A stretch of DNA of 64,000 nt from Escherichia phage Andreotti. The notes below the pieces were generated by a model. The model was not told the origin of the DNA and searched no databases. It worked only from the letters and a program-made list of their open reading frames with translations. This document shows, one piece after another, positions 1-24,960 of the stretch (position 1 is its first letter; every line of letters starts with the position of its first letter). The translations under genes were made by a program, and so were the position numbers. The stretch is taken from the sequence record MN850610.1; one strand, given 5' to 3'.

Positions 1-90
1 TGCAGACCACACTCAGGTCTGGCTCTCTATAAAAACCTACCTGCACAAATCTAAAATGATTTTTCTTGCCCGACCTGAGTGTGGTCTGCA
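1..90. repeat. perfect 19-bp inverted repeat (arms 1-19 and 72-90); may extend beyond window start
   Basis: tgcagaccacactcaggtc (1-19) is the exact reverse complement of gacctgagtgtggtctgca (72-90). Confidence 0.8.
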
Positions 91-227
91 CGTTTTGAAA
101 ATGAAAAAGCTCTTTGGAGATTATCTGCACAGTTTGAAAATGAATTTTCTCTTTGGAGTTCAAAATTCTCTCTACAGATTTCTCTACAGAACTCTACCTG
201 CACAATTCTGAAATGAAAAAGCCCTCC
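41..227. repeat. four degenerate direct repeats CTGCAC-N-TTTGAAAATGAA-(AAAAGC/TTTTCT)-CTTTGGAG (approx 41-68, 86-118, 125-158, 198-227)
   Basis: read directly: ctgcacaaatctaaaatga / ctgcacgttttgaaaatgaaaaagctctttggag / ctgcacagtttgaaaatgaattttctctttggag / ctgcacaattctgaaatgaaaaagc. Confidence 0.7.
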
Positions 228-289
228 TTACCTGAAAAATTTACCAGATAAGAAAGGCTTAGGCTATTGTGAATATCCTACAGAGTTTC

Positions 290-1075: not shown

Positions 1076-1276
1076 TTAACATCTCTCCCAAGACTCTTTA
1101 TCTTCTGAAGGTTTTACACGCTGTCCTTCGTGGTCTACCCAGATGCACCCACAACCTTCACAGATTACTGGCATTGCGTAGCCAGCTTTAAAGTCATCTT
1201 CAGTGATAAGACCTTTTAAGTCACCTGTATCACGTCCGAACATTTCGATAGAACAATCTTTACAGAAGTCAGCCAT
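1076..1276 (-). CDS. small Cys-rich (zinc-binding?) protein; start moved to ATG at 1276 (MADFCKDCS...)
   Basis: CxxC...CEGCGC motifs; GAGG Shine-Dalgarno about 10 nt upstream of the internal ATG; the upstream part of the track ORF overlaps the neighbouring gene. Confidence 0.4.
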   Translation of the reverse strand: MADFCKDCSIEMFGRDTGDLKGLITEDDFKAGYAMPVICEGCGCIWVDHEGQRVKPSEDKESWERC

Positions 1277-1496
1277 GAATAATTGCCTCTTGAATGATGA
1301 TACCTTTACCACAACGACTTTTAAAGTCTTCCAATGGTTCAGAGATGAAGCCACGTAAGCAGTCAGTGAATACTAAGTTCTTCCTGTAAGCTATCACATC
1401 ATTTGCTGTAAATGGGATGACCTCATTTCGTCCAATGAACACTGCTGACCTGATAAGCTTTCGTGTCTTTTTATCTCTGGCTAGTATTACTTTCAT
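1269..1496 (-). CDS. hypothetical protein
   Basis: co-directional ORF, 8-nt overlap with downstream gene; no recognisable motif. Confidence 0.4.
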   Translation of the reverse strand: MKVILARDKKTRKLIRSAVFIGRNEVIPFTANDVIAYRKNLVFTDCLRGFISEPLEDFKSRCGKGIIIQEAIIHG

Positions 1497-1797
1497 AGTT
1501 TACCTTCTCAGTTAGCTCATATAAATCAACATGCTCAATACTATCAATGTTGATATCAATCTTTTTGAAGCGTTCTATCACTTCGTTGTCAGTCATCCAT
1601 ATCAGACACCAATGATTCTGAATGGATTCTTCAAGAAGGTCAACACAATCTTTAAAAGTTTTTGTGTCACTTCTTGTTCCGACCACTGCAATTGTTCCAT
1701 ATAGCCACTTACCATTGCCGTAAGTTACTTGTGCTACACCAACCTCTTTATCTTTCTCGTAGTAAACGGCTACAAAATCTCTTCCATTAATCTGCAT
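1471..1797 (-). CDS. hypothetical protein
   Basis: co-directional ORF in tightly packed block. Confidence 0.45.
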   Translation of the reverse strand: MQINGRDFVAVYYEKDKEVGVAQVTYGNGKWLYGTIAVVGTRSDTKTFKDCVDLLEESIQNHWCLIWMTDNEVIERFKKIDINIDSIEHVDLYELTEKVNYESNTSQR

Positions 1798-1799
1798 AG

Positions 1800-2069
1800 T
1801 TACTTCCTCGTTTTAAGAACTGCTAAGATTTCTTTAGAGTCTGGTAAGAACCATGTGTAGTGATTCTCTTTGATTTCTGGATGAGTGTCAACCTTTATTT
1901 TGCACTCTTTACCAACATGCTTAAGCTGTGCTGTGACACCTTGCATAAAGATATGACACATCACATTATCCATAATGGTTGGTAAGAAGTCAATTCGCAT
2001 ATAAGTTTCTTTTGGTCGTGGTAACAGTAAGTAACCTTCTACATAGAAAGTGTCTTGATTCTCTGTCAT
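1800..2069 (-). CDS. hypothetical protein
   Basis: co-directional ORF, 2-nt gap to upstream gene. Confidence 0.45.
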   Translation of the reverse strand: MTENQDTFYVEGYLLLPRPKETYMRIDFLPTIMDNVMCHIFMQGVTAQLKHVGKECKIKVDTHPEIKENHYTWFLPDSKEILAVLKTRK

Positions 2070-2335
2070 TGCTGCTTATTCCCTAATAAAATCATGTCAA
2101 TAAGGTTATTAGCTTTAATTGTACACTGGTAAAAGCCGTCACGGTAGAACTCAAGTGCTTCTGCTACATCACTGCCTGTGTTGCCTTTGATGATATACCG
2201 TGACTCTTCTTGAGTGTACTTATCACTCTCACTTACTTGGGAGTTTTTGAATGTACTGTTCACTTTGTTCGTTGAACACCCTGACATAGTTATCAGTAAC
2301 ACAAACATTATAAAACTCTGGCTTAGTTTTTTCAT
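2066..2335 (-). CDS. o-spanin candidate (outer-membrane lipoprotein), overlapping the 3' end of the upstream gene
   Basis: N-terminal signal MKKLSQSFIMFVLLITMSGC with lipobox-like MSGC; start lies inside 2229-2576 in another frame, the classic overlapped Rz/Rz1 arrangement. Confidence 0.4.
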   Translation of the reverse strand: MKKLSQSFIMFVLLITMSGCSTNKVNSTFKNSQVSESDKYTQEESRYIIKGNTGSDVAEALEFYRDGFYQCTIKANNLIDMILLGNKQQ

Positions 2336-2576
2336 ATGTTAGTACCTCTTTTGTATGCTTATTCTTAGCAAGCACATCTTTCAAATCATTTTTGTAATTG
2401 GTGCTCAGTGTGACTAATCCTTCCTGATAAGCATCTTTAGCAACACTTATGAGCTTTTGATTGTTTAGCTCAGTTTCAGCAACTTGATAGTCTCTGTAAG
2501 AGTATCCTCCCCAGACACCTGCACCAACTAAGAAAACAATTATGAAAGTAGCTTGACAGAACTCTTTAAATGTCAT
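2229..2576 (-). CDS. i-spanin candidate (N-terminal TM anchor plus periplasmic helical domain)
   Basis: hydrophobic segment ATFIIVFLVGAGVWGGY then charged helical region; overlapped by lipoprotein ORF. Confidence 0.4.
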   Translation of the reverse strand: MTFKEFCQATFIIVFLVGAGVWGGYSYRDYQVAETELNNQKLISVAKDAYQEGLVTLSTNYKNDLKDVLAKNKHTKEVLTYEKTKPEFYNVCVTDNYVRVFNEQSEQYIQKLPSK

Positions 2577-2595
2577 TTAACAATCTCCTGAAATG

Positions 2596-2616
2596 AAAAA
2601 GGCTCCCGAAGGAGCC
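2596..2616 (-). terminator. intrinsic terminator (hairpin ggctcc-cgaa-ggagcc followed by U-run on minus-strand transcript)
   Basis: plus strand shows A5 then GC hairpin; downstream of gene ending at 2629. Confidence 0.55.
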
Positions 2617-2628
2617 TGTATCTTAACC

Positions 2629-3093
2629 TTAACCGAGGACTTTAGCAAGGATATTTGCAGCCATCGAAGAAGCTTTTGCAGCAGCAACTACGCCAGCTTT
2701 GACAGTGCTATCCTTGATAGCAGATACCGTTGCAGCATCAGTAAAGAGATAAGTAGTTGTTTTAGAACCACTTGTAAAGGAAAGCATAAGAGCAGTTTCC
2801 AGATTGAAAGAGCGATACGGAGCACCTTCTTTAACGATACCTTCAGCACCTAATTCTGAAGCCATCCCCATATCATAGATAGTCATCAGGTTTTCTTTGT
2901 GTGCTGTGGTTGAGCCAGAACCTTTTACGTGTTTCTTAACATTCAAAAGAGCACGATACTCTCGGATGTTACCGTCTGCTTTTACGTTGACAGCACGGAA
3001 AATTTTACCCTCAAAGTTGCTCTTGATAATGTTACGAACTACTTCAGATTTGTTTGCCGTAACGTCCAGTGCTACCGTAATGATATTGTTCAT
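2629..3093 (-). CDS. hypothetical protein
   Basis: co-directional ORF; no recognisable motif. Confidence 0.5.
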   Translation of the reverse strand: MNNIITVALDVTANKSEVVRNIIKSNFEGKIFRAVNVKADGNIREYRALLNVKKHVKGSGSTTAHKENLMTIYDMGMASELGAEGIVKEGAPYRSFNLETALMLSFTSGSKTTTYLFTDAATVSAIKDSTVKAGVVAAAKASSMAANILAKVLG

Positions 3094-3103
3094 AAGTTTT
3101 CTC

Positions 3104-3799
3104 TCAATGTTTAACTAACATGGTTTTGATGTGTGGAAGTATTCTGTTCACCTTCTGCACATTCTTCTCTGTGTCTTCTATAAAACATACTATATTAAAG
3201 TAAGGCAGAATGCAAGACTGAATCATCCTCACTTTCAAACTTTCTGCACTTATAGAGTTAGTCCCAAAACCACGCATAAAAAGCATGTAGTCATGCTCTG
3301 TGTTATGCCTTAAAAACATCTCAGTAGGTATTCTCTGAGATTCACCTCTCGCTGTCAAGAGTCCAATGGCAGCATGACTAGCAATTGCATCAATAATACT
3401 AAAGACATACGTTGGTTTTGCTCTTACAGAGTCAAGAAGATTAGTGTACTGTGAGAATGACCCATCAGTCAATTCCGTTGAGCAATCTTCGTGATTAAAA
3501 TTTGTAAGAACACCATCAATATCTGCTAAGATGAGGTTACCTTTTTCTACAAGGTCTTTATTGACTATGACTAAACTGTCACGTCTTACACCTATAGATT
3601 GTCCGGTCTCTTTGTCCACAACGTTCACAATTGGCTCTGATGTGTGAAACTCTTCAAGTGAACATACAACTTCTCTTGCAGTGTCTTCAAAATCCCTACA
3701 CTGTTCTGGAGTCCATACACAGGAATCAAGACCTAACTCATGAGGATGTAAGTCATAAGCATGGCACAGTACTTCATCAGACTTTTTTAATTTTTTCAT
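3104..3799 (-). CDS. HAD-superfamily phosphatase, possibly 5'(3')-deoxyribonucleotidase-like
   Basis: LILADIDGVLTNF resembles the DxDGVLxDF motif I of HAD/NT5C enzymes; motif sits about 90 aa from the N-terminus, so assignment is tentative. Confidence 0.35.
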   Translation of the reverse strand: MKKLKKSDEVLCHAYDLHPHELGLDSCVWTPEQCRDFEDTAREVVCSLEEFHTSEPIVNVVDKETGQSIGVRRDSLVIVNKDLVEKGNLILADIDGVLTNFNHEDCSTELTDGSFSQYTNLLDSVRAKPTYVFSIIDAIASHAAIGLLTARGESQRIPTEMFLRHNTEHDYMLFMRGFGTNSISAESLKVRMIQSCILPYFNIVCFIEDTEKNVQKVNRILPHIKTMLVKH

Positions 3800-4325
3800 G
3801 GTTTACCTTAGAAATGTTTATTGCAAATTCACATTGAGCGATGACTTTCATATTGTTATAGACATCTTGAGAGTATTTCTTAGCTTTAGGAATTTTGTAC
3901 GAATACCCAGCATTATATGATGCTAAAACTTTTTGTAAAGTCTTCTTTGACTTTGGCTGACCATGCACCTTTGTCCAAAACTCAAGCTCTTTGTGCGTTT
4001 CCTTCGCAGCATAGTCAAAGTCTTTTAAGAGTTTCTTTTTAGCCACATTAGGACTAATTTTGTTACGCTTTACAACAGTCTTCAAGTGATTCTGGAAAAT
4101 ACCATAATCATGTGTCTTTTTATTCTCTACCTTCAGACCTAACTCTGACTCTTGTAAGGCTATAGCAGCTAGAGTGATACCCCAACCTTTACCCATGTTA
4201 TTCTCACCATACTGGTAAGCTTTTAACATGTTTACTTTTTGGCTAATTGATAGCTCTGGGCAGTCAACTGCATAAGATAAGTGTGCTGTAAACATTAAGC
4301 ACAAACCTAGAATCAATTTCTTCAT
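3777..4325 (-). CDS. soluble lytic transglycosylase (SLT domain) with N-terminal signal peptide; endolysin candidate
   Basis: signal MKKLILGLCLMFTAHLSYA; SLT motifs AIALQESELG (catalytic Glu), GIFQ, SYNAGY. Confidence 0.65.
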   Translation of the reverse strand: MKKLILGLCLMFTAHLSYAVDCPELSISQKVNMLKAYQYGENNMGKGWGITLAAIALQESELGLKVENKKTHDYGIFQNHLKTVVKRNKISPNVAKKKLLKDFDYAAKETHKELEFWTKVHGQPKSKKTLQKVLASYNAGYSYKIPKAKKYSQDVYNNMKVIAQCEFAINISKVNHEKIKKV

Positions 4326-4384
4326 TGGTTCTCCTGTTTAGTTTATCGTGACAACAATTATACAGTACTCTGCACAAAACACAA

Positions 4385-4412
4385 ATAAAAAAGGCCGCCG
4401 AAGCAGCCTTTT
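4385..4412. terminator. GC hairpin flanked by A-run and T-run (bidirectional terminator-like)
   Basis: aaaaaaggccgccgaagcagcctttt between convergent-like gap after gene ending 4426. Confidence 0.4.
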
Positions 4413-4425
4413 AAGAAATTACTTA

Positions 4426-5535
4426 TTAGCTTTCACGTTTACGTTGGGAGATAAGTTCTCCAGCAGTACCAACGATGACATGTAAAGCTTCAGTCTTGCC
4501 ATCCCATGCTTTCAGCACTTTACGTTGATTATCAACGATTGCTGCAACTTCATAACGAGACGAGCGCATCTTCATATCGTTGTAATCAGTTGGTACGGAT
4601 ACAACGTCTCGTGGATGGACACGAACCTTCAGAATTGTATCACCTGAGAAACAACGAACATAATCCCAAGCACCAACATGAAGACCTTGAGAGCAAGTCA
4701 CGTTACGGTTATTATCAACCATCCAACGTGGCATTTCTACAATGTTACCCAAATCATTAGGTACTCTGTAGGTGTGGGAGTCAACCAGCTTGCCTTCACG
4801 AGTAGATACTTTCTTCCAACCAATGATGTAGCCTTCTTCATCAATTTCAACATCAAGGTGAGATACGAAGCCCCAAAGTTGTTCTACGGAATCTTTAGAT
4901 GGGTTTTCCATCAGTTTTTCGAAGAACATCACAAGGCGTTCGAAACCTTTATCTCCAGTCTTCATCATGTGAAGAATACGGTCAACCAGAGTAGAACGCA
5001 TCTCAACAGCACCATAGAATAGTTTGTCGCCTTTGATTGTGATAGCACCCTGAGTGAAGTTTTCGATAGACTTACGAATGTTCATCAGTTCAAAGGCTTT
5101 CTTAAACTCACCTTTCACAACATGAACTACAATCTCTTGATAGTTCGGATGAGTAGATTCAACAATTTCAGACTCTGAACCGTAAGTCATAATTACAGAG
5201 TCACCAGTAATCATGTACTCAATCTTGTCATCTTTCTGCATAGCTTCATGCAGTTTATTTACTGGAGCTTTCTGTACAGCATCTTTAACAACCTTTTCAA
5301 CTGGTTTGTCAGCTTTCTTTTTAAAGGTCTTAGCAACTTGCTTCAAAGTCTTCGTAGCTGGTGTAGAAGTCACCTTCTTATTCCCTTTTAAGGTTGCTTC
5401 ATGACGCTCTACAGCACGACCGACTGAACGGGTTGAGGTGTTAAATTTCTGTGCAATAGCGGTTTTAGTCAGCTTGCCCTCTTTAACCAGTTTGTAAATT
5501 TCTGCGTCAATCTGTGCTTTAGTTTTAGTAGTCAT
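4426..5535 (-). CDS. rIIB: rIIB-like protein
   Basis: immediately downstream of the rIIA-like gene in the same orientation and of comparable size to T4 rIIB; no motif verified. Confidence 0.45.
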   Translation of the reverse strand: MTTKTKAQIDAEIYKLVKEGKLTKTAIAQKFNTSTRSVGRAVERHEATLKGNKKVTSTPATKTLKQVAKTFKKKADKPVEKVVKDAVQKAPVNKLHEAMQKDDKIEYMITGDSVIMTYGSESEIVESTHPNYQEIVVHVVKGEFKKAFELMNIRKSIENFTQGAITIKGDKLFYGAVEMRSTLVDRILHMMKTGDKGFERLVMFFEKLMENPSKDSVEQLWGFVSHLDVEIDEEGYIIGWKKVSTREGKLVDSHTYRVPNDLGNIVEMPRWMVDNNRNVTCSQGLHVGAWDYVRCFSGDTILKVRVHPRDVVSVPTDYNDMKMRSSRYEVAAIVDNQRKVLKAWDGKTEALHVIVGTAGELISQRKRES

Positions 5536-5584
5536 CTTATTACTCTCTCTTGTTAGTTAATAAATCATTTTGTGATGCCATTTT

Positions 5585-5604
5585 AAGGGGCTTCAAAGCC
5601 CCTT
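5585..5604 (-). promoter_or_regulatory. conserved intercistronic stem-loop AAGGGGCT-N4-AGCCCCTT upstream of the rIIB-like start
   Basis: perfect inverted repeat, no U-run; the same hairpin family recurs at 10359-10374 and 45042-45059. Confidence 0.45.
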
Positions 5605-5614
5605 GTCAAACACT

Positions 5615-7981
5615 TTAATCGTAAATTGTAGTCCCTTCTGGAACACATTTTACATCAAAGCCTAAGAACTTACTCACTTCGATGGGTGACACTTTATTCC
5701 AATCCAAATGAGAAAGCAAGAAGTTTTCTTGTTTTCTTTTTGAAAGGTAGTTTGTCACCTTAATGACCATACGGTCACCAGCTTTCTTAATTTTCTTGTA
5801 AAGCTTTGTATCATTGTCAAGACAGTCTTTCAAAGTTTTCAATACACTAACAGTATAAGTGTATGCAAATGGTGCAGCAACGTATTGGATTTTACCGAAC
5901 ATTGCCTCTACAGCCTCTTCATTACCTTCTAAGAAGATAGTTTTGTTTGTGTCTCGTGAATAGCAATAGCCACGAGAAATCTTCCTGTTATTGAACGTAA
6001 AGTTTCTGGCAATAATCCAACTGCTTGTAAGGTCAAGGACACCATTCATATAGATACGTGTCATATACCTGTTATGATTAATCCAATGAACATCAGTTAA
6101 GCTGTCGTTCAAGAGTTTCTCATCTACTTCAATCCAGTCTTCTGGTATCTTTTTCCAATTTGCTTTTCGGAAAATATAGACTGTCTTCCCTGTAACATTA
6201 GCAACTGACTTGGCTACATCTTCTGGAGATGAGCAAAAACATTCGCCATCAACTGTATCACCAACTGCCTTAATGTAAAGCTGAGGTTCTTCAATTGTAT
6301 CGAAGTCCTCTGAAACCTCTTTATAGGAAGCTACACCTTCTGCTGGAACAGCTTTCCAGAGTTTTACAACACCCCTTACAGCTTCTTTGCGCTGGTAATG
6401 GTGCTCCTTATCAGACATTTTCACAATCTTTAACAAGCTTTTATCAAGTTTGTGTAGATTGATTAGGTCGTCTAACTCTTTTTCAGTCGAGAATACAAAC
6501 ACAATACCATTATATCTGTGAAACAGACTTGACTCACTGGCGTAGTCTCGACATGCACCACGCAGAATCTGATTGCGGCCTACAGTCTTTTCAGTACCGT
6601 TTTTATTGCGACGGTCATTAATCACGAACAAAAACTGTTCAATTTGGCTTTTACGCATTGCACCAAAGATATTGAACATGCTCGCCTCTTGAGTGTAGGA
6701 AAGTGCTGTTGCACGAATCTTACTCTCTAAAGAGTTGAACTTAACATAAGCAACTGGATTGTATAGGTAGTCCACTTTAGGAATGTTGTTTCCTTTACTG
6801 TCAACCTTAATATTACCTTTGCCGTCACGTTCATAGATGACTGAGCCGTCCTCTGCGTAGATAATTCCACGACGAATGTTTAGTAATTCTTCTTCCAGAG
6901 AATCAAGCTTAACACCTCCCCACTCTAGCTTTGGACACACAACATTAAACATCTCTCGTGAGTTCAAGCGTAACTCAGCATAAGCCTGTGCAGCATCCAT
7001 GAGTGTAGGTTGACTATTAACTTTCTTGATAACATCCTTTGTAATTGCTTCAGTTATCTTTTTAGTAGCCTCGATGATAACATTTTTTGTCGTGTCATTC
7101 ATCTGCAATGCTTCACGAGAAGCTGCAATAGCAACTGAACCAATAGGCATGTAGATGTTTACAAGGTCTATGCTCCTGCGGAAAAATTCTGGTAATACTT
7201 TGAAGAAATCATCACCAAGTAATGCCTCCATATTAACTGGGTAGGCAATATTACCCATAACCACGTTAAACTCTGTTCTATTGCTGCTTGAACGCCAGCT
7301 ATGCTTATGAGTCATGGCATCATAGACACCTTCTTCACGAGCAATCACATCCATATCTGCTAATATATCATTATACTCCACATTACTCTCTGGTTTTACA
7401 GCAAAGTATGAGTATACATTACCAGCCTCTTCAAAGAACTTTGAAATACGGTGGTCAGCAACTGCCACACGTACAGCTAAACCATTAGGTTCATTTGTTT
7501 GGTTAGTAGTAAGCTTAGTTACTTGAGGGATACCATTCTCAAGGTAAACAGAGTACTTATTAACAACACCATCAACATAGCTAGATACTGTGAATGACTG
7601 AGCAATTGCAAACGGTGACTTTGAGCCGATACCCATTGCACCAATGTAGTCATTAGAGTCATTCTTCGTAGAAGCCCCGTAGTTCAGATACAAGCTCATT
7701 ACTTTGTCATGGGTTAAACCAGTTCCAAAGTCACGGACTTCAAAGTAAGGCTCAAATCGAGTAGGCAAATGCACATGGAACGGGATGTTTTCTTTTCCAG
7801 CTTCTTTCTGAGCATCTACTGCGTTACATGACAGTTCACGAATCACTGCTCGCTCTTTAAACGTGTATACACCAGAACTCAAAAGGCTGAACATTTCAGG
7901 TGTCATTGTAATTTGTGCTTGAGATGTCTCCAAAGAAGTTGAACTCTTAATCACTTCTGCGTGGTCGTTTACCATGCGCAT
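5615..7981 (-). CDS. rIIA: rIIA-like protein with N-terminal GHKL-type ATPase fold
   Basis: N-terminal motifs RELSCNAVDA (N-box), VRDFGTGL (G1), GAMGIGSKSPF (G2), matching the pattern remembered for T4 rIIA; about 790 aa. Confidence 0.6.
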   Translation of the reverse strand: MRMVNDHAEVIKSSTSLETSQAQITMTPEMFSLLSSGVYTFKERAVIRELSCNAVDAQKEAGKENIPFHVHLPTRFEPYFEVRDFGTGLTHDKVMSLYLNYGASTKNDSNDYIGAMGIGSKSPFAIAQSFTVSSYVDGVVNKYSVYLENGIPQVTKLTTNQTNEPNGLAVRVAVADHRISKFFEEAGNVYSYFAVKPESNVEYNDILADMDVIAREEGVYDAMTHKHSWRSSSNRTEFNVVMGNIAYPVNMEALLGDDFFKVLPEFFRRSIDLVNIYMPIGSVAIAASREALQMNDTTKNVIIEATKKITEAITKDVIKKVNSQPTLMDAAQAYAELRLNSREMFNVVCPKLEWGGVKLDSLEEELLNIRRGIIYAEDGSVIYERDGKGNIKVDSKGNNIPKVDYLYNPVAYVKFNSLESKIRATALSYTQEASMFNIFGAMRKSQIEQFLFVINDRRNKNGTEKTVGRNQILRGACRDYASESSLFHRYNGIVFVFSTEKELDDLINLHKLDKSLLKIVKMSDKEHHYQRKEAVRGVVKLWKAVPAEGVASYKEVSEDFDTIEEPQLYIKAVGDTVDGECFCSSPEDVAKSVANVTGKTVYIFRKANWKKIPEDWIEVDEKLLNDSLTDVHWINHNRYMTRIYMNGVLDLTSSWIIARNFTFNNRKISRGYCYSRDTNKTIFLEGNEEAVEAMFGKIQYVAAPFAYTYTVSVLKTLKDCLDNDTKLYKKIKKAGDRMVIKVTNYLSKRKQENFLLSHLDWNKVSPIEVSKFLGFDVKCVPEGTTIYD

Positions 7982-8009
7982 AATACTTTCCTCTCAGTTT
8001 ACTGTTAAA

Positions 8010-8186
8010 TTACTTATTAAACATTTTACCAGAACCACCACACATAGGGCAACATCCTGCCCTTATGTACCCCTCTCCATTACAGTAGTCACATTTTTTG
8101 TGCTCTGCAAAGTACTTACAAAGGAGGTAAACAAATACTGCTACACTACCAAGTGACAGTAAAATTTCTATCCAATATGCTTGCAT
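8010..8186 (-). CDS. small membrane-anchored protein with DnaJ-type zinc finger (58 aa, not in ORF track)
   Basis: hand-translated MQAYWIEILLSLGSVAVFVYLLCKYFAEHKKCDYCNGEGYIRAGCCPMCGGSGKMFNK; two CxxCxGxG repeats; GAGAGGTGA Shine-Dalgarno upstream. Confidence 0.35.
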   Translation of the reverse strand: MQAYWIEILLSLGSVAVFVYLLCKYFAEHKKCDYCNGEGYIRAGCCPMCGGSGKMFNK

Positions 8187-8503
8187 GACTCACCTCTCAT
8201 ATTTTTGTAAAGGATAAAGCTTCTGTCATGGACAATACTTGTAGACACTGCAAAGTTACTTTCAAGCATCTGTTTGTTTGGATTGTAGAAGCTTTCTTTA
8301 AACTCGTCAAGTGCAAATTGGTGATTGTCTGGAAGACCTTTTACACAGACTTTTATTGTGATTGCTGCTGCAATCTTACCAGTCAGTTCTTCTTTAGCTG
8401 CTACTAAAATTTTGTTAAGGAACTTTTTACCATCTTCAGGTTTCTTAATGTTCTCCCAACGTTCTTCTAGGACAACGTTAATGTTCATTTCTTTGATTTT
8501 CAT
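8168..8503 (-). CDS. hypothetical protein
   Basis: co-directional ORF; no recognisable motif. Confidence 0.5.
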   Translation of the reverse strand: MKIKEMNINVVLEERWENIKKPEDGKKFLNKILVAAKEELTGKIAAAITIKVCVKGLPDNHQFALDEFKESFYNPNKQMLESNFAVSTSIVHDRSFILYKNMRGESCKHIG

Positions 8504-8518
8504 AATCTTCTCCAGAAA

Positions 8519-8543
8519 TTAAAAAGGCTCCCGTAGGAGCCTC
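8519..8543 (-). terminator. intrinsic terminator (ggctcc-cgta-ggagcc plus U-run on minus transcript)
   Basis: A-run then GC hairpin on plus strand, just downstream of gene ending at 8557. Confidence 0.55.
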
Positions 8544-8556
8544 TTATCATATACTT

Positions 8557-10338
8557 TTAAAGCTGCTTGTCAATATTATTTCGAATATCTCCAAGAGTTG
8601 TATAACCGAACTGCTCAGAGTCGCTAAAGACTAAACGTAAAGCACAAGCTTGGTGGTCAAGTACATCTGCAAAACTCTGGAATCCATAGCCATCTACAGC
8701 TTTCAGCTTATCACCATCCCACATAGGTGCTACACCACCAAAGGCAGATTTCTTAACACCACTATCTGTTTTAGGGTCTTTTGCAAGCATAATCTCTTTA
8801 CCACCAATGCTTGCAAGAGTTGCTTTGACAGCAAATGCAAAGGTGTCACGAGTCATGTACTGGTAAGTGTAAGAGCCTACACCAAACACTACGTTAGAGC
8901 TTGCAAAACCCATTTCATACAGACGCTTCAGGATTTCGTTTGCACGTTCCAGCGTGATAGAGTCACCATAGATAAGGCCGATGTGCTCATCCAGTACCTT
9001 AAACCCTTTAGAGTTAATAGTCCCTCCGAAGATGTTGTACAGGGTCTTAATAGCTCCATCAATCTCTGCTACAGGACGTGTTACAACGTTTGCAGAGCCA
9101 ACCATATAAGCATTTTTCAACATCACTGTATCAGCAACTCCAAAGTCTTCTCTGTCAACAACCATTTCGTAGCCTTCTGACAGTAGCCATCCAGCAATAC
9201 CATAGTTGATGTTTTCAAGCTTCATGTTCAGAACAGCATTCAACATTGTGTCACTAGCTTCCAGCTTGCTTAGGTGCTCATAATAAGCCTTCTTAGCACA
9301 CTCTAAGTGGATTGCTTTATAGCCTGTGACAATATGTACAGGGTCTCCAGAGTCAGGGCGAATTACCAGCTTACCATCACGTTCCATAATTTCTTTACGA
9401 AGTGCTGGTAAGATTTCTGACACAGTTCTCCAGAAGTTATAAGTATCTGAAACAATACTTGCAATACCAGTTGGGTAAGTTTCTGTTAAGAAACGACGGA
9501 AGGTTTGCAACTCACCTTTAAAGCGTCTTTCCTCTTCAATCAATTCATTACCACCTTCCCAAGCAATGTTTGCACACATTACAGAGTGTTCAGTGGCTGG
9601 TACAGAACTACCAATATCAGAAATTGGGTAAGACTGTCCATAGATGCGTTTAGCCGTGTATACAGCAGGGAAGCTATCAGTTCCTTTAAAGCTGGTTAAG
9701 TGACCTACAGCATTAAATGCGTCATCGGTAAAGCCGGACATACCACGCATAGCAAAGTCATGGCACTGATAAGGTAAATGTAAGTCATTGTCGCAAGTAA
9801 GGTCAGCCCACTTCTTACAGATACGTTTGTAGTGCAATGCAATAGTTGCAATGGTGCAAGTCTTCCAAATCTCAGCAGAGAAAGCATCTTCCAGATAACC
9901 TGCTACCCAATGGAAACCTGAAACAGTGTTCTGGAAGACAATCATTGGAACACACATAGGAACAACTGTACCTTCTTCTACAGCGTATACTTCAACTGGT
10001 AGATAGCCTAAATCGTGAAGTGCTTCCCAATGCTCTCGACCGATAGCATCTTTACCCAGAACACCATTCATGACTTCTAAGATTTCGTCAACTGCTTCTT
10101 TTTTATCACGTTCAAAGAAAGTGGCGTTCCAGTGGTCTATCAGGTAATCTTTAACGAAACGTTGAATACCAAAAGCTACTACACCATCAATTGCTAAGGG
10201 GCTGTTAAACCATTTGTCACTACGTGGTGTCAGGTTGAACATCAAGTATTCTGTTGCACTAGGGTACTGGTAAACATGACCAGATTTGTAAGCATCTGCG
10301 TTTAAACCTGCTGGTACTGCGTAAAGCGATTTAGTCAT
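8557..10338 (-). CDS. nicotinamide phosphoribosyltransferase-like protein (NAMPT/NadV family, or the related Namat)
   Basis: 593-aa ORF directly downstream of a Prs-like gene; assignment rests on size and gene pairing known from Felix-O1/KVP40-type phages, not on a verified motif. Confidence 0.5.
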   Translation of the reverse strand: MTKSLYAVPAGLNADAYKSGHVYQYPSATEYLMFNLTPRSDKWFNSPLAIDGVVAFGIQRFVKDYLIDHWNATFFERDKKEAVDEILEVMNGVLGKDAIGREHWEALHDLGYLPVEVYAVEEGTVVPMCVPMIVFQNTVSGFHWVAGYLEDAFSAEIWKTCTIATIALHYKRICKKWADLTCDNDLHLPYQCHDFAMRGMSGFTDDAFNAVGHLTSFKGTDSFPAVYTAKRIYGQSYPISDIGSSVPATEHSVMCANIAWEGGNELIEEERRFKGELQTFRRFLTETYPTGIASIVSDTYNFWRTVSEILPALRKEIMERDGKLVIRPDSGDPVHIVTGYKAIHLECAKKAYYEHLSKLEASDTMLNAVLNMKLENINYGIAGWLLSEGYEMVVDREDFGVADTVMLKNAYMVGSANVVTRPVAEIDGAIKTLYNIFGGTINSKGFKVLDEHIGLIYGDSITLERANEILKRLYEMGFASSNVVFGVGSYTYQYMTRDTFAFAVKATLASIGGKEIMLAKDPKTDSGVKKSAFGGVAPMWDGDKLKAVDGYGFQSFADVLDHQACALRLVFSDSEQFGYTTLGDIRNNIDKQL

Positions 10339-10358
10339 CTTTTAATCTCTCTCAAAAT

Positions 10359-10374
10359 GGGGCTTTCAAGCCCC
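10359..10374 (-). promoter_or_regulatory. conserved intercistronic stem-loop GGGGCTT-N2-AAGCCCC between the Prs-like and NAMPT-like genes
   Basis: perfect inverted repeat about 20 nt upstream of the NAMPT-like start codon. Confidence 0.45.
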
Positions 10375-10383
10375 TATAAAGTT

Positions 10384-11265
10384 TCAATCAATGGTTGCTA
10401 CAGTAACTTGGGCGTAATGTGTTAAGCCACGGTCTTTAGCTTCACCTAAAGTGTTTGTAGTGTAGATATGGTCAATACCGTTGTCAAGTAAGTTTTCAAC
10501 ACCTTTAGAGAAAATACCATGAGTTACATAGAGTTCCACACGTTTTGCACCTGCTTCACGTAGGTGTTTAGCTGCCTCTACGAAGGTTCGACCACCATCA
10601 CAGATATCATCAAGAATCATGACAGTTTTATCGGTCAAATCAACATCGTCAAGGATTCGCATACCAGTGATTTCTCCAGTCTTAAGATTGCGCACCTTAG
10701 ACATTGTGATATACGGTTTATCCACCTCTTTAGCGGTATCTTCAGTCTTCTTAGCTGCACCTGCATCTGGGGCTACCAAGAAATCAATGCGTGGGTCACT
10801 TGCAAAGTGTACTGCCACATCTTTTTGCTTCATGCTTTGAAAGCACTTAAATAAGTTTTCTGCAACATTACTGTGAGGGTCAAGAGCACATACTGCATCA
10901 AAACCCATTGCATTAACTAGGTTGGCAAAGACTTTCAGTGCTGCTGCATCACCTTTGAACATGTGGCGGTCATATCGAGCATTTGGTAAGAACCCGAAAA
11001 CAACGGTTTTCATCGCTGATTTCTGGGGAACAAGACTGTCAACGGCATCCTTAGCCAAAGCTAATGCAAACAGTGTATCTTTGTCATATCCCTGTACAGT
11101 AATTATAACATTATCAATCTTACCAGCATTACGCTCAGTAAACTTAACAAAATCTTCAGAGAAGTTTCCACCAATTTCTCCAGATGGGAATTGAATGATA
11201 TTAAATTTTTCTGTGTGGAAGAATTTCTCTTGAGCGGTGACGACGGCTTCAATAACAGTTTTCAT
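10384..11265 (-). CDS. ribose-phosphate pyrophosphokinase-like protein (Prs family; could be ADPR-PP synthetase type)
   Basis: PRPP-binding motif VMILDDICDGGRTF near C-terminus; start moved to ATG at 11265 (MKTVIE), preceded by a purine-rich GAGAGAG stretch. Confidence 0.6.
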   Translation of the reverse strand: MKTVIEAVVTAQEKFFHTEKFNIIQFPSGEIGGNFSEDFVKFTERNAGKIDNVIITVQGYDKDTLFALALAKDAVDSLVPQKSAMKTVVFGFLPNARYDRHMFKGDAAALKVFANLVNAMGFDAVCALDPHSNVAENLFKCFQSMKQKDVAVHFASDPRIDFLVAPDAGAAKKTEDTAKEVDKPYITMSKVRNLKTGEITGMRILDDVDLTDKTVMILDDICDGGRTFVEAAKHLREAGAKRVELYVTHGIFSKGVENLLDNGIDHIYTTNTLGEAKDRGLTHYAQVTVATID

Positions 11266-11276
11266 AGTTTTCTCTC

Positions 11277-11555
11277 TCAATCAAAAGTTACGTTTGTTAC
11301 TGCCATTGCAGATTTGCATTTTGCAGGGTCTACAACGTGATAAAGTACACTACAGTTACCTGTGCTGTCTGGTACAGGCTTTACCCATTGCTGCTTTATA
11401 TTTGGCTCCCCTAAGTCTTTGTAAGAGCCATCTGTAAAGTTGTTTACCATCTCAAGTGCAATTGGTTCTGGAACATGCCCACGTATCATGTACATTTCAC
11501 AACCATTACCGCCTTCACTGACTAATGGTAAAATCTCCCACTTCTCTTTAGCCAT
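11277..11555 (-). CDS. hypothetical protein
   Basis: co-directional ORF. Confidence 0.45.
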   Translation of the reverse strand: MAKEKWEILPLVSEGGNGCEMYMIRGHVPEPIALEMVNNFTDGSYKDLGEPNIKQQWVKPVPDSTGNCSVLYHVVDPAKCKSAMAVTNVTFD

Positions 11556-12063
11556 TGTAAGTTGCCCTATAAACTGTCTCGAACTTCAACAGGAGAGATA
11601 TTGCCAAATCTGTATAGTTGTTGTCAAGCACATCTGGCATATTATTTTTGATATATTTCTCTTGCTCTTCATAGGTCATCTTAGTTGTGCTTAGAAGGTT
11701 ATCTCCCTGCTTCTGGTTATCAAGTTTAGTCTGGATAAACCAGTTTGCACAGTGATGCTCACCACCCTTTGTAACAGGTTTGTGGTGGCCTAATGTGAAG
11801 GATTGACTACCTGTGTATCTACAAAGCTTATTGAGCACTGCAATGGTGTTCTTCACAACAAAACATTCATACAGGTTATCTATAGTGTAGTGTGGGTAAT
11901 AACGGAATAGTACTCTTTCACGAGTACTTTCACGATTCCAGAGAATCATGTGATTGGAGTTTGAGGGGTCGTATTGGTGGGAGTCAATGAACTCTTGACG
12001 TTCCTCAAAGCTAAGTCTTAACACTGACATTGCAGCAGAACGTTTTAGGTTTGACAGATACAT
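11548..12063 (-). CDS. hypothetical protein
   Basis: co-directional ORF. Confidence 0.5.
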   Translation of the reverse strand: MYLSNLKRSAAMSVLRLSFEERQEFIDSHQYDPSNSNHMILWNRESTRERVLFRYYPHYTIDNLYECFVVKNTIAVLNKLCRYTGSQSFTLGHHKPVTKGGEHHCANWFIQTKLDNQKQGDNLLSTTKMTYEEQEKYIKNNMPDVLDNNYTDLAISLLLKFETVYRATYNG

Positions 12064-12074
12064 ATCATCTCCAA

Positions 12075-12103
12075 AATAAAAAGGGAACTGTAAAGGTTCC
12101 CTT
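12075..12103 (-). terminator. intrinsic terminator (agggaac-loop-gttccct plus U-run on minus transcript)
   Basis: A-run then hairpin on plus strand, downstream of gene ending 12115. Confidence 0.5.
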
Positions 12104-12114
12104 ATAGTATCTGT

Positions 12115-12435
12115 TTACTGAGCTACTTTCAAGATGCTTGTGAATGAAATCTCACTCTCATCCATAAACTCTTTTGCTTCTCCAGTAACTTTTACAAAGT
12201 TATCTAGGCAGATAATCTTCTTATCTTTCTTGCTATAGGTTAGCTTGACCTTTTCAATATCTTTCTTAGAGTTTTTCTCTTCATTAAAGAGCTTCACAGC
12301 TTCTTTAAATGGTAGGTATGAACCATCATCATCGCTAATAAAACCTGTGCCGCAATAGTAGAAGTTATATTCTTTAGCCATAAACTGGCACAGTACGAAA
12401 ATCTGTAATTTGCGAGTGTTATATACTTTGCTCAT
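12115..12435 (-). CDS. hypothetical protein
   Basis: co-directional ORF. Confidence 0.5.
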   Translation of the reverse strand: MSKVYNTRKLQIFVLCQFMAKEYNFYYCGTGFISDDDGSYLPFKEAVKLFNEEKNSKKDIEKVKLTYSKKDKKIICLDNFVKVTGEAKEFMDESEISFTSILKVAQ

Positions 12436-12437
12436 GA

Positions 12438-12704
12438 TTATTTAACCTTCTTATTACGTTTACGGTTACGAGCTTTCTTAGCTGCTCGTTTAATAGCTGC
12501 TGCACCAGACTGGTGGTGAGCTTGTTTCTTACCACCTTTACCACGTCCTACGTAGATGTAAGGCTGCTGTTCAATTTGGCTTGTAAGAACCTGTGCAACC
12601 GCTGAAGCATCTACACCGACCTGCTTTCCAGTCATAGAAATGATTGCTGCTGCTTTTGCCAGTGCCTTCAAGAAGCCAGCCTTCATATTACCTAAAATTC
12701 CCAT
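12438..12704 (-). CDS. small protein with poly-basic C-terminal tail (nucleic-acid binding?)
   Basis: C-terminus KRAAKKARNRKRNKKVK. Confidence 0.45.
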   Translation of the reverse strand: MGILGNMKAGFLKALAKAAAIISMTGKQVGVDASAVAQVLTSQIEQQPYIYVGRGKGGKKQAHHQSGAAAIKRAAKKARNRKRNKKVK

Positions 12705-12719
12705 TTTTAGTCTCTCTCA

Positions 12720-13076
12720 TTAAAGTTTAATACAGAACTTATGGAGTTCTTCTTCAGTGATACCGATTGGAGTTACACCTTCTCTGATGTTTTGAATCCT
12801 GTAGAAGTCTCCAAATTTATCTGACTCGTGTATGGCAAAGGTGACATTCTTTACAATCGTTGCAAGAGCACATAATGAATGTGCACCAAATTTTTCTCTT
12901 GTATAAATAATCCAGGCATCTAACTTGTTGATGTCATAAGTCCACTTGCCAGAATAATCATTCTGCTCGCCATTGACAATCGCCTTGCCATCCATACTCT
13001 TTTCTCCAGAGGTTTTGGTTATCAGAACCACGATATGGTTTAACTGTTGGTTTAGACGAATCATACTTACCATCAA
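12720..13076 (-). CDS. hypothetical protein; true start probably downstream of the track start
   Basis: track start is TTG and overlaps the nrdG 3' end by about 119 nt. Confidence 0.3.
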   Translation of the reverse strand: MMVSMIRLNQQLNHIVVLITKTSGEKSMDGKAIVNGEQNDYSGKWTYDINKLDAWIIYTREKFGAHSLCALATIVKNVTFAIHESDKFGDFYRIQNIREGVTPIGITEEELHKFCIKL

Positions 13077-13443
13077 TCACCACGTCAACATATTTCATTA
13101 CATCTAAGTGGATTTTTTCGTGCAGTTGAAAACCTGTCCAAAGCCATATAGACTTTTCTGGATAAACAGTTTTAATACGCTTGCATATGTTGGTGACCTC
13201 TTGAATGTTTCTGTCATCCAGAGGCTCCCCACCAAGTATTGACAGCCCACTGATAGCATTATCATCCATTAACTTAATGATGCCGTAGAGGTTTGCATAG
13301 GTAAACTCTTTACCAGCATTAAACTTCCAAGACTCCCTGTTAAAGCAGCCTTCACAGTGATGCTTACAACCAGCTACGAAGAGGCTTACACGAACCCCTT
13401 CACCATTAGCTGTGTCAAATGGTCTAATCTCCATGTAATTCAT
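12958..13443 (-). CDS. nrdG: anaerobic ribonucleotide reductase activating protein (radical SAM)
   Basis: CKHHCEGC (CxxxCxxC) radical-SAM motif near N-terminus, about 160 aa, RGSDNQ near C-terminus. Confidence 0.7.
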   Translation of the reverse strand: MNYMEIRPFDTANGEGVRVSLFVAGCKHHCEGCFNRESWKFNAGKEFTYANLYGIIKLMDDNAISGLSILGGEPLDDRNIQEVTNICKRIKTVYPEKSIWLWTGFQLHEKIHLDVMKYVDVVIDGKYDSSKPTVKPYRGSDNQNLWRKEYGWQGDCQWRAE

Positions 13444-13502
13444 CTAGTTACCTCACCAATAAATATAAATGTTCTTTAAACCTTTTCTTCGAATTGTTTT
13501 AC

Positions 13503-13898
13503 TCATTCAAACACCACCTCACAAGGAACCTGTTTAGTAATAAACTCTTCACAGTGTTCTTTAATAAAGTTTTGTAATGGAACACAGTCTTGCGCGCAAG
13601 TCATTAGCATAATGTACTCTGGATTCATGATGTTTTCAAGGGTGTAGAAGACAACATCATTAGATAATTCATGACCATCTTCTTCAGACCAAGTTCCAGT
13701 GACTACAGCTAATTTATCAAGTAACTCATTAGGCAACGCTACACCGTCTTCTACGGAGTCGCTTAGAACATTGTCGCTGATGTACAATGTGAAGACTGTA
13801 TGGAATGTTGAGTATTTTACGTGATTCTTTTCGCAAGAGCCACACTCTGAGGCGTAGTCTTTAACCCACTCTAACTGTTTTTGGTTCAACTTAATCAT
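13503..13898 (-). CDS. hypothetical protein
   Basis: co-directional ORF. Confidence 0.45.
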   Translation of the reverse strand: MIKLNQKQLEWVKDYASECGSCEKNHVKYSTFHTVFTLYISDNVLSDSVEDGVALPNELLDKLAVVTGTWSEEDGHELSNDVVFYTLENIMNPEYIMLMTCAQDCVPLQNFIKEHCEEFITKQVPCEVVFE

Positions 13899-14095
13899 AA
13901 TTTCACCCTAGTTGGTAATGCACTGAATGCTATAGCTAACCCTAAAAATGGTTTGAAGCATGACCATAAATCCATTTGTCCGTGATATGATAATCTCCAT
14001 TGTGGGTCTGAAAAACCCCATACCATAACACTAACCCCAAAGAAGAAGATTAGAATGTGGAGTATGTATATCAACGTTTTTGATATTTTAAACAT
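13895..14095 (-). CDS. small membrane protein
   Basis: hydrophobic segment ILHILIFFFGVSVMVWGF. Confidence 0.4.
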   Translation of the reverse strand: MFKISKTLIYILHILIFFFGVSVMVWGFSDPQWRLSYHGQMDLWSCFKPFLGLAIAFSALPTRVKL

Positions 14096-14199
14096 TTTAA
14101 CTTATCTCTCAATTCACAATAAGAAAGTCCTAAAAAGAATCCTAGTAAGACAGAACCTATGAACAAACCGATAATACTCTCTGCCATGTCTGACATCCA

Positions 14200-14238
14200 A
14201 TAAAAAGGTGATGTAAGCCTATCAAGACCCACATCACC
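14200..14238 (-). terminator. intrinsic terminator after nrdD (8-bp stem ggtgatgt/acatcacc, large loop, U-run)
   Basis: inverted repeat plus A5 on plus strand immediately downstream of nrdD stop at 14249. Confidence 0.45.
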
Positions 14239-14248
14239 TTGTCAAGTT

Positions 14249-15115
14249 TTACATAGAAATCCTGTCACGAATCTCAGCGATTTTTGCATCATTCATTCGG
14301 GATTCACCTTTAATCTTAGTCCATCCCAGATATCCGCACACCCTGTTAATCACAGAGATGTCATGTGAATGGCAAACCTCACATTCTTCAACATCAGCCT
14401 TTGGTCTGTTACCACAATGTTCACAGATTGCTAAGTCAAAGTTAAGTCCCTGATAGAAACCTTTCAACATACCTCTTGTAATACAACTTTTAAGTGCTGG
14501 TAAGTTTTCTGGGTTAGCTACCCTTACATACTGGATTCTGCCACCTCTACAGATATGGAAGAATGGCTCTTCTAAGTCCTGCTTCTCAAATGGTGAGATG
14601 TTTGCTGCAACATTCATATGGAAACTGTTTGTAAAGTATTCCTTGTCAGAAACGCCTTTAATAACACCAAACATATCTCTGAACTGTTTTAGCTGAGTTC
14701 CACACAATGACTCTGCTGGAGTGCCATATACTGCATACAGGAAGCCATCTTCATTCTTAAACTCTTCAGTTTTCATGTTAATGTATGCCAGAACATCGTA
14801 TGCAAAACTAGAACTTCCAACTTCATGAAGTCGTTTACCTTCAGCAAGAACAGATAACTCATCAAGAGCAGTAACCCCAAAAGAAGCTGTGAAGGATTTC
14901 ACAATATCCCAACCAACCTTGTCAGTAGGCTTCTTAGTCCCTTTATACAGACCACCTTGTGTGAATGCAAGAGGGTTAGAACTTGCTGGCATATTGGCAA
15001 TCATTTCGTAACGTTTCTTATGGAAGCTGCGAATCATTTCTAGGTACTTATCAAGCTCTTTCCAGAAATCTAAACCATTCTCTTTAGAATACTGGTAAAT
15101 CATTGGTAAGTTCAA
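14249..15115 (-). CDS. nrdD: anaerobic ribonucleoside-triphosphate reductase, C-terminal part (exon 2)
   Basis: glycyl-radical motif RVCGYLG and Zn ribbon CEHCG...CEVC at C-terminus; exon boundary not determined, track start is only the first Met. Confidence 0.7.
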   Translation of the reverse strand: MNLPMIYQYSKENGLDFWKELDKYLEMIRSFHKKRYEMIANMPASSNPLAFTQGGLYKGTKKPTDKVGWDIVKSFTASFGVTALDELSVLAEGKRLHEVGSSSFAYDVLAYINMKTEEFKNEDGFLYAVYGTPAESLCGTQLKQFRDMFGVIKGVSDKEYFTNSFHMNVAANISPFEKQDLEEPFFHICRGGRIQYVRVANPENLPALKSCITRGMLKGFYQGLNFDLAICEHCGNRPKADVEECEVCHSHDISVINRVCGYLGWTKIKGESRMNDAKIAEIRDRISM

Positions 15116-17135: not shown

Positions 17136-17154
17136 TATTGCCCCTTTACATGTT

Positions 17155-17176
17155 AAAAAGGTCTCCGAAGAGACCC
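17155..17176 (-). terminator. intrinsic terminator (ggtctc-cgaa-gagacc plus U-run)
   Basis: A5 then hairpin on plus strand between genes ending 17184 and starting 17135. Confidence 0.5.
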
Positions 17177-17183
17177 TTTCATT

Positions 17184-21242: not shown

Positions 21243-21261
21243 TTTTTGAATCCTACAGATG

Positions 21262-21284: not shown

Positions 21285-21289
21285 CTAGT

Positions 21290-22901: not shown

Positions 22902-22922
22902 TTTATTCTCTCTTAATAGTTA

Positions 22923-24944: not shown

Positions 24945-24960
24945 TATGGCTCTCCATATG

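Follow-up and report, generated by a model that had tools for sequence, protein, structure and literature searches.

Background

In type I DnaJ/Hsp40 proteins, the cysteine-rich domain (PF00684; 1exk) carries four CxxCxGxG motifs that bind two zinc ions, and it forms a V-shaped domain between the G/F region and the C-terminal domains of the J-domain chaperone. The plant protein LQY1, like BSD2 and ZnJ2, is a stand-alone DnaJ-like zinc-finger protein. It is anchored by an N-terminal transmembrane segment, its CXXCXGXG zinc finger at the C-terminus faces the stroma, and it acts as a protein disulfide isomerase (PMC6805722). The Bacillus protein Anti-TRAP (RtpA; 2bx9, 3ld0, 3lcz; PF15777) comprises 53 residues, carries two CXXCXGXG motifs, and binds one zinc in each subunit, which is required for assembly as well as for function, and it acts by binding and blocking another protein (PMC2896485).

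The gene studied here occupies positions 8010..8186 on the minus strand of a 64,000-nucleotide stretch of Escherichia phage Andreotti (MN850610.1), referred to below as the window, and encodes a protein of 58 amino acids. Its closest described counterpart is Anti-TRAP, with which it shares the size (~53–58 residues), two CxxCxGxG motifs, an 11-residue spacing from the second Cys of motif 1 to the first Cys of motif 2, and, by prediction, one Cys4 hairpin. However, Anti-TRAP is soluble and builds trimers and dodecamers through a C-terminal helix (PMC2896485), whereas the phage protein ends five residues past the second motif, has a predicted N-terminal transmembrane helix instead, and scores far below the curated Anti-TRAP cut-offs. 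The motif itself is the one found in DnaJ, but with two copies the phage protein holds half a cysteine-rich domain, lacks a J domain, and has a membrane anchor. Its layout of an anchor followed by a zinc finger is that of LQY1, with the cytoplasmic side of the phage finger suggested by the distribution of K/R only. LQY1 is longer, with four motifs and two zinc ions, acts as an isomerase on photosystem II subunits, and its homology to the phage protein is detectable at the motif level only. BSD2 appears among the fold matches of the phage protein. To our knowledge, TRAP is absent from enterobacteria.

Small DnaJ-like proteins with such a knuckle are widespread among phages, as the viral structure library BFVD shows. 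Its fold matches comprise many phage proteins of 46–130 residues that have this knuckle, including RB49 Q7Y3T0, phiEa21-4 gp117, and a “putative heat shock protein” of Bacillus phage Goe2. Most of these differ from the 58-aa protein in having no N-terminal helix or more repeats, and a literature search found no experimentally tested function for any of them.

Annotation in related phages

The source genome is that of a Felix O1-like phage (Felixounavirus), and the 1.1 kb around the gene share 95–96% identity with the genomes of many Felixounavirus phages of Escherichia and Salmonella. The gene is not new, as it has already been catalogued and annotated in relatives. Its orthologs include Felix O1 ORF131 (Felix01p243), annotated as “hypothetical membrane protein”, SUSP1 gp080, and Bas63 g83, annotated as “putative membrane protein” and identical to the 58-aa protein at 56/58 residues. 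In Salmonella phage Mushroom, gp002 is annotated as [quoted passage not shown], a label of which the “heat shock protein” part over-interprets a partial motif match. Other orthologs are labelled “membrane protein” or “hypothetical protein”, while the record of phage dune omits the gene. An earlier reading of the window, made from the sequence only (hereafter the sequence-only reading), had called the gene unannotated, which is true of the open reading frame track used for that reading but wrong for the public records, in which many GenBank annotations exist.

Near-full-length matches to the 58-aa protein were found in ~325 phage records, with identities of 91–100% within Felixounavirus and 100% copies in FSL SP-107, CRP22, and others. 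The protein matched the PHROG 3931 profile with an E-value of 1.5e-33, its residues 1–58 covering profile positions 1–59 of 59, and the homologues of Sf14 and Krischvirus matched the same profile with 2.2e-33 and 4.3e-10, respectively. The SUSP1 ortholog has been assigned to phrog_3931 and equated with Felix01p243 (PMC11879866), and the phiEa21-4 record already notes a likeness to RB49p046. Literature searches combining Felixounavirus with DnaJ found nothing, and a search for small membrane zinc proteins of bacteriophages found nothing relevant.

Coding status and translation signals

The open reading frame consists of 58 codons and a stop codon (8010..8012), starts with ATG, and its product reads MQAYWIEILLSLGSVAVFVYLLCKYFAEHKKCDYCNGEGYIRAGCCPMCGGSGKMFNK. 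The strand, which had been left unstated in the sequence-only reading, is the minus strand. A Shine-Dalgarno sequence, GAGAGGTGA, lies at 8190..8198 (minus strand) inside the upstream open reading frame, with 3 nt between its end and the ATG. A GGAG/GAGG element is also located 7–10 nt 5' of the start in Mooglevirus (Sf14), Suspvirus (SUSP1), and a further metagenomic lineage, and its distance is unchanged while the residues of the overlapping upstream protein differ at this position in all three. In the phage Mushroom record, a ribosome-binding site is annotated at the position of the Shine-Dalgarno sequence. The end of the upstream 111-aa open reading frame and the start of the 58-aa gene overlap by 19 nt (8168..8186, minus strand, from the ORF coordinates), which is consistent with translational coupling.

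The frame was intact in 25/25 Felixounavirus copies from GenBank and IMG/VR. Across 22 distinct Felixounavirus alleles, the pooled pN/pS in the 58-aa frame was 0.10, and codon position 3 held 29/42 variable sites. Of the five other frames, four had a pN/pS between 0.95 and 3.9. The fifth, at 0.125, is an antisense frame that has its wobble positions in common with the 58-aa frame and contains stop codons. An antisense 60-aa open reading frame at 7974..8156 (plus strand) was rejected as coding, with a pN/pS of 2.2 in its own frame. Against Mooglevirus, Suspvirus, and the further metagenomic lineage, protein identity was 47–55% and dN/dS was 0.24–0.32. The gene evolves faster than the adjoining NAMPT, 111-aa gene, and rIIA but is still clearly constrained. 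Single-base frameshifts that destroy the zinc finger occur in an A6 run of a few database genomes and may be sequencing errors or real losses. On the pattern of substitutions, 8010..8186 is a genuine protein-coding gene under purifying selection; the loss of frame and non-coding substitution pattern that the sequence-only reading had named as grounds for abandoning it were not found.

Predicted zinc-binding motifs

Both motifs are exact CxxCxGxG sequences. Motif 1, CDYCNGEG (C32 D Y C35 N G37 E G39), is encoded at 8070..8093 and motif 2, CPMCGGSG (C46 P M C49 G G51 S G53), at 8028..8051, both on the minus strand, and each would contribute two of the four predicted zinc ligands. In a six-frame translation of the whole 64 kb window, CxxCxGxG occurred only twice, both times in the 58-aa frame, whereas in 200 shuffles of the window the pattern turned up 0.21 times on average and never more than 2 times. 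An alignment of 15 homologues, reaching down to 25% identity, had nine invariant columns, namely Met1, C32, C35, G37, G39, C46, C49, G51, and G53. The additional Cys45, which forms a “CC” doublet in front of motif 2, is common but not invariant, as it is replaced by Pro or Ile in four homologues (P0010, P0033, P0137, and P0092).

Matches to curated domain profiles stayed below threshold. In Pfam, DUF5351 matched at 9e-4, DnaJ_CXXCXGXG (PF00684) reached 18.3 bits against a cut-off of 32.7 and covered only profile positions 34–65 of 65, and Anti-TRAP (PF15777) reached 11.7 against 32. The NCBIfam model for RtpA (NF058604) scored 14.4 against 65, and TIGR02349 was matched at positions 179–212 only, with 18.6 against 377. 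Comparison with the PADLOC defence models gave only a meaningless 12-bit match.

The best sequence match in the PDB was the DnaJ cysteine-rich domain 1exk (E=1.3e-3), while the best fold matches were Anti-TRAP of B. licheniformis (3ld0) and B. subtilis (2bx9), which aligned over 28 columns with an rmsd of 0.9–1.1 Å, 32–36% identity, and a probability of 0.99–1.0. DnaJA2, BSD2, and DnaJ 1exk came next. The underlying AlphaFold2 model was built on only 8 sequences, and the Foldseek E-values of 0.08–0.45 are weak as the domain is tiny. With two adjacent motifs 11 residues apart, only one Cys4 site can be formed, which argues for a hairpin of the Anti-TRAP type and not for the four-motif, two-zinc domain of DnaJ. 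In such a hairpin, Cys32, Cys35, Cys46, and Cys49 would together hold a single zinc.

The word-indexed protein search reached close relatives only (7 and 13 matches), and the wider set required an exhaustive HMM search. This search of 1.84 billion representatives returned 677 proteins at E<=1e-3, mostly DnaJ-like proteins with multiple repeats. The best 150 of the 677 contained about ten proteins of 52–60 residues that were matched over nearly their whole length, and all eight of those retrieved (8/8) had an N-terminal hydrophobic helix followed by two motifs.

Predicted membrane helix and topology

The transmembrane anchor is predicted at residues 5–23, WIEILLSLGSVAVFVYLLC, encoded at 8118..8174 (minus strand), with a mean Kyte-Doolittle value of 2.11. 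AlphaFold2, from the 8-sequence alignment, placed a helix at residues 3–28 with short strands after it (mean pLDDT 80). Two polar residues within the helix are largely retained. Glu7 is present in at least 90% of the 15 homologues, being absent from the phiEa21-4 and Arno162 orthologs, and Ser11 does not vary among the 8 closest homologues, while the 15-sequence alignment has Ser, Thr, or Asn at this position. A cleavable signal peptide was rejected as there is neither a basic n-region nor an AxA site. A lipoprotein was likewise rejected, since LLC does not make a lipobox and the Krischvirus homologues lack the Cys.

The 58-aa protein has no K/R before the helix and six after it, and the six homologues tested have 0 before and 4–6 after. 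By the positive-inside rule, the tail would therefore be cytoplasmic (N-out/C-in), which is also where zinc-thiolate sites are stable. This orientation is inferred from the K/R distribution only, and it is less well founded for Mooglevirus and Suspvirus, in which the flank next to the membrane contains one K/R and is net acidic; the flank of Krischvirus (PLKKCKHC) is strongly basic.

The features described in the sequence-only reading were thus confirmed. The good Shine-Dalgarno is present as GAGAGGTGA, with a GGAG/GAGG element kept across lineages, the N-terminal hydrophobic helix was predicted from hydropathy and by AlphaFold2, and the two exact CxxCxGxG repeats were confirmed, with their four Cys and four Gly invariant in 15 homologues. 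The combined architecture of a membrane helix with a DnaJ-type zinc finger is supported by the Cys/Gly conservation, the sub-threshold profile matches, and the Anti-TRAP fold match.

Gene neighbourhood

All genes of the region lie on the minus strand in the order ribose-phosphate pyrophosphokinase (10384..11280), NAMPT (8557..10338), 111-aa gene (8168..8503), 58-aa gene, rIIA (5615..7981), and rIIB (4426..5535). The position between NAMPT, with or without the 111-aa gene, and rIIA is common to Felixounavirus, Mooglevirus, Suspvirus, Kolesnikvirus, and Pectobacterium phage Arno162. The same order together with the overlap with the 111-aa gene was found in Mushroom, DR094, Sf14, phiSUSP1, Felix O1, Bas63, and the metagenomic contig L037. 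In Erwinia phage phiEa21-4 (Kolesnikvirus), a 54-aa protein with a helix and two motifs is encoded by the last gene and the overlap with the neighbour is absent; this genome, like that of Felix O1, was seemingly opened at rIIA. In Arno162, a 52-aa homologue follows directly after NAMPT, the 111-aa gene is absent, and orf1 is rIIA (41% identical). Judging from these two phages, the 111-aa gene is often, but not always, the neighbour.

The 111-aa protein belongs to PHROG 4262 (phrog_4262, E=3.4e-68) and had no match in Pfam, NCBIfam, or PADLOC. Its AlphaFold2 model (pLDDT 62) gave a weak Foldseek match to the C-terminal domain of IF3 (E 0.015, TM 0.45), and its similarity to phiEa21-4 gp116 was marginal (E 0.03). 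The 111-aa protein is not thioredoxin-like, and it was uninformative as a functional clue. T4 rIIA.1, a small gene 5' of T4 rIIA, was considered as a counterpart of the 58-aa gene and rejected, as its 67-aa product has neither a hydrophobic helix nor Cys.

A second context was found in T4-like phages. RB49, Phi1, JSE, GEC-3S, and about 60 other Krischvirus genomes encode a 52-aa homologue with 42% identity between nrdH, whose 3' end its gene overlaps, and a DUF7570 gene. More diverged T4-like contigs repeat the order of glutaredoxin, homologue, and DUF7570, and in several T4-like lineages the homologous gene and the 3' end of the glutaredoxin/NrdH gene overlap by ~8–11 nt. Since the T4-like homologue adjoins nrdH and not rII, the association with rII is specific to Ounavirinae.

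Knock-down and knockout phenotypes

Published fitness data exist for two orthologs. In the CRISPRi-ART screen of phage SUSP1, gp080 (57142..57321) was classed as “Not Fit” with a fitness of 1.05 (7 guides, p 0.11), as was gp079, the 111-aa gene, while rIIA was “Semi-Fit” (PMC11879866). Because the SUSP1 lysis genes were also “Not Fit” (PMC11879866), the gp080 result does not discriminate with regard to a role in lysis.

The second data set consists of PhageMaP barcoded knockouts of the Felixounavirus Bas63 (10.1101/2024.10.10.617714). In the portion of its fitness values considered here, the g83 knockout scored +0.25, +0.11, and +0.48 on S17 and was positive or near zero across four host/defence conditions. 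On the QatABCD host, the values for g83 were +0.77, +0.66, and +0.81, while rIIA (g84) at -1.26, -1.30, and -1.61 and rIIB (g85) at -1.05, -2.46, and -2.45 were required. In the text of the study, g83 is not among the counters or triggers that are named (10.1101/2024.10.10.617714). Taken together, the SUSP1 and Bas63 screens therefore indicate that laboratory growth does not depend on the gene and that the rII counter-defence does not require it. Within the values considered, the gene was not needed along with rIIA and rIIB against QatABCD, and membership in the rII module was accordingly not found. The tie to the rIIA/rIIB-like genes drawn in the sequence-only reading did not hold up, with g83 knockouts positive on the very host that requires both rII genes and with the RB49-like homologue next to nrdH.

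Discussion

We propose, at about even confidence, that the 58-aa protein is an accessory, N-out/C-in membrane-tethered protein-binding module with one Anti-TRAP-type zinc hairpin and a conditional benefit for the phage. The protein would be produced together with the rIIA-proximal genes and would span the inner membrane once, as a bitopic protein whose single transmembrane helix separates a very short N-terminus in the periplasm from a cytoplasmic tail of ~30 residues. The tail would fold as a single beta-hairpin zinc knuckle around one Zn2+, and the conserved polar face of the helix (Glu7, Ser11) may allow the protein to associate with itself or to dock to a partner in the membrane. The knuckle would then bind a cytoplasmic or membrane-associated protein of the host, a prophage, or the phage itself, and hold or block this target at the membrane. 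A benefit would be confined to certain hosts, defence systems, or physiological states and would lie outside the core lytic programme. That the benefit is conditional is argued from conservation, because the gene is conserved while a phenotype is absent in both screens. The last step, protein binding with a conditional benefit, is the most uncertain one of the proposal.

A more far-reaching version, which we consider possible but put forward only tentatively, is that the protein represents a new type of effector. An Anti-TRAP-like knuckle tethered to the inner membrane would capture a specific host or prophage protein there, and the gene would have been exchanged between the Ounavirinae and the RB49-like T4 phages, two unrelated groups of virulent enterobacterial myoviruses, because it pays off only on particular hosts. 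The captured protein might belong to a defence or abortive-infection system, but a protease or a redox partner would also be conceivable.

Among the alternatives to the protein-binding module, a membrane-anchored thiol/disulfide or chaperone-like factor in the manner of LQY1 or DnaJ, acting on Cys-containing membrane or redox proteins and possibly together with phage NrdH, is unlikely, yet it accounts for several observations. LQY1 has the layout predicted for the phage protein (PMC6805722), the homologous gene overlaps the 3' end of the glutaredoxin/NrdH gene in several T4-like lineages, many homologues keep the extra Cys45, and both DnaJ and BSD2 are found among the fold matches. However, LQY1 and DnaJ have four motifs where the phage protein has two and thus one zinc site, the J domain is absent, Cys45 is not invariant, and PF00684 stays well short of its cut-off (18.3 vs 32.7). 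Moreover, in Ounavirinae the glutaredoxin gene (17383..17625 in the window) is not adjacent to the 58-aa gene, and the 68-aa membrane open reading frame that follows it is unrelated.

The reverse topology (N-in, C-out) would place a disulfide-bonded, Cys-rich tail in the periplasm, for example as an early superinfection-exclusion or envelope-modifying factor. Early small inner-membrane proteins of virulent phages often serve in superinfection exclusion and are dispensable in laboratory assays with single infections, so that the dispensability in the screens fits, as does the net acidic flank after the helix in Mooglevirus and Suspvirus. We nevertheless regard this orientation as improbable, since K/R precede the helix in none of the six homologues tested and 4–6 follow it, the Krischvirus flank PLKKCKHC is basic, the signal-peptide n-region and cleavage motif are absent, and in every solved relative that was found the CxxCxGxG hairpin serves to bind zinc in the cytoplasm.

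A role as holin or lysis-timing factor, with or alongside rIIA/rIIB, in which the helix and the charged C-terminus form or regulate membrane lesions, appears more doubtful still. In the Felix O1 genome paper, transmembrane prediction placed gp131 among five holin candidates (PMC3185647), the gene stands directly 5' of rIIA in all Ounavirinae examined, and the product is small with one transmembrane helix and a basic C-terminus (6 K/R in the tail). Against this, the part of the Bas63 data considered has g83 knockouts fit on the QatABCD host where rIIA (-1.26 to -1.61) and rIIB (-1.05 to -2.46) are required, and the holin label is carried by other Bas63 genes (29 and 153). Holin genes usually accompany endolysin or spanin genes. 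In the window, the spanin gene lies elsewhere (2229..2576) and the 58-aa gene sits between NAMPT and rIIA, while the RB49-like homologue adjoins nrdH and neither rII nor lysis genes. Knockout and knock-down caused no fitness defect, although lysis genes were also non-essential in those screens. Furthermore, we know of no holin class with a conserved Cys4 zinc knuckle. The part in lysis timing that had been suggested for the gene from the sequence is therefore not favoured by the positive knockout fitness of g83, the other holin labels in Bas63, or the location of the RB49-like homologue away from lysis genes.

Finally, a chance open reading frame or a remnant held by constraints on overlapping or adjoining sequence, to which the short length, the lack of a phenotype in two screens, the frameshifted alleles in a few database genomes, and the missing annotation in some records such as that of phage dune might point, is effectively refuted by the substitution pattern (pN/pS 0.10 vs 0.95–3.9 in 4/5 other frames, the 0.125 frame having stops), with only 19/177 nt overlapping another open reading frame, two CxxCxGxG motifs in one frame far from chance expectation, and the frame and 8/8 motif residues kept at 45–60% identity across genera and in the different context of T4-like phages.

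The 58-aa gene is one of many small conserved phage genes, it has as yet yielded no new biology, and it is a modest target for follow-up. It is nonetheless a tractable case, as the protein has a clear two-part architecture, with a protein-protein inhibitor as the nearest relative of solved structure for its zinc knuckle, as two phage lineages without a common origin carry it, and as barcoded resources for knockout (Bas63) and resources for knock-down (SUSP1) exist. Identification of the partner bound by the proposed module would give PHROG 3931 a function, and probably also the wider set of small “DnaJ-like” proteins of phages.

Genes upstream of the zinc-knuckle gene

The genes for NAMPT and ribose-phosphate pyrophosphokinase (8557..11280, minus strand) lie directly upstream. 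Their orthologues in the Felixounavirus Bas63, g80 and g79, reportedly counter the Sir2-HerA defence (PhageMaP preprint, 10.1101/2024.10.10.617714). The counterpart of 8168..11280 on a metagenomic contig of 95.7 kb encodes a 116-aa protein (P0165), whose C-terminal half is that of the 111-aa protein, while its N-terminal part aligns poorly to the 111-aa family and is similar to the start of the pyrophosphokinase. By this make-up P0165 looks like a fusion protein, which suggests a deletion that took out NAMPT in this phage variant.

A near-consensus sigma-70-like promoter candidate, identified by consensus matches only, occurs in the gap between NAMPT and the 111-aa gene (8522..8573, minus strand). 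It consists of TTGACA, a 16-nt spacer, and TATGAT (11 of 12 consensus positions matched); a GC-rich hairpin of 10 bp, with a T-run, comes immediately after it. Judged from sequence, this arrangement may serve both as the terminator of NAMPT and as a promoter from which the 111-aa, 58-aa, and rIIA genes are transcribed.

The predicted model of the 111-aa protein (PHROG 4262; 8168..8503, minus strand) was of low confidence (pLDDT 62) and had a beta-alpha-beta-alpha-beta-beta layout. Its Foldseek match to translation initiation factor IF3, in the C-terminal domain of that protein, was weak, with an E-value of 0.015 and a TM-score of about 0.45-0.5.

Variants of the zinc-knuckle gene

Codons 30-31 of the 58-aa ORF contain an A6 run (8094..8099), and a few database genomes, phiWec177 among them, encode frameshifted versions of 63 aa. 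For at least one of these, P0005, the point of divergence fits the loss of 1 nt from the A6 run; divergence occurs later in P0003, after CNG. In NJ12 the encoded version is 41 aa long and its N-terminus is altered. Sequencing errors could account for these altered versions, as could genuine inactivation of the gene. A 60-aa ORF antisense to the gene (7974..8156, plus strand) was ruled out as coding by its substitution pattern, as pN/pS in its frame was 2.2.

tRNA genes and the nrdH locus

Felix O1-like phages carry about 20 tRNA genes each. ARAGORN found none in the window (1..64000), and the cluster must therefore be located in the part of the genome beyond these 64 kb.

After nrdB, an NrdH-like glutaredoxin of 80 aa with a CPQC motif (17383..17625, minus strand) overlaps by 8 nt at its end with a 68-aa ORF that has two hydrophobic segments and no Cys (17184..17390, minus strand). 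The equivalent pair in Bas63 is annotated as “putative glutaredoxin” (g65) and “membrane protein” (g66). Whereas this Cys-free ORF follows nrdH here, the same slot is occupied by the zinc-knuckle homologue in RB49-like phages. Small membrane proteins of unrelated sequence thus recur downstream of nrdH.
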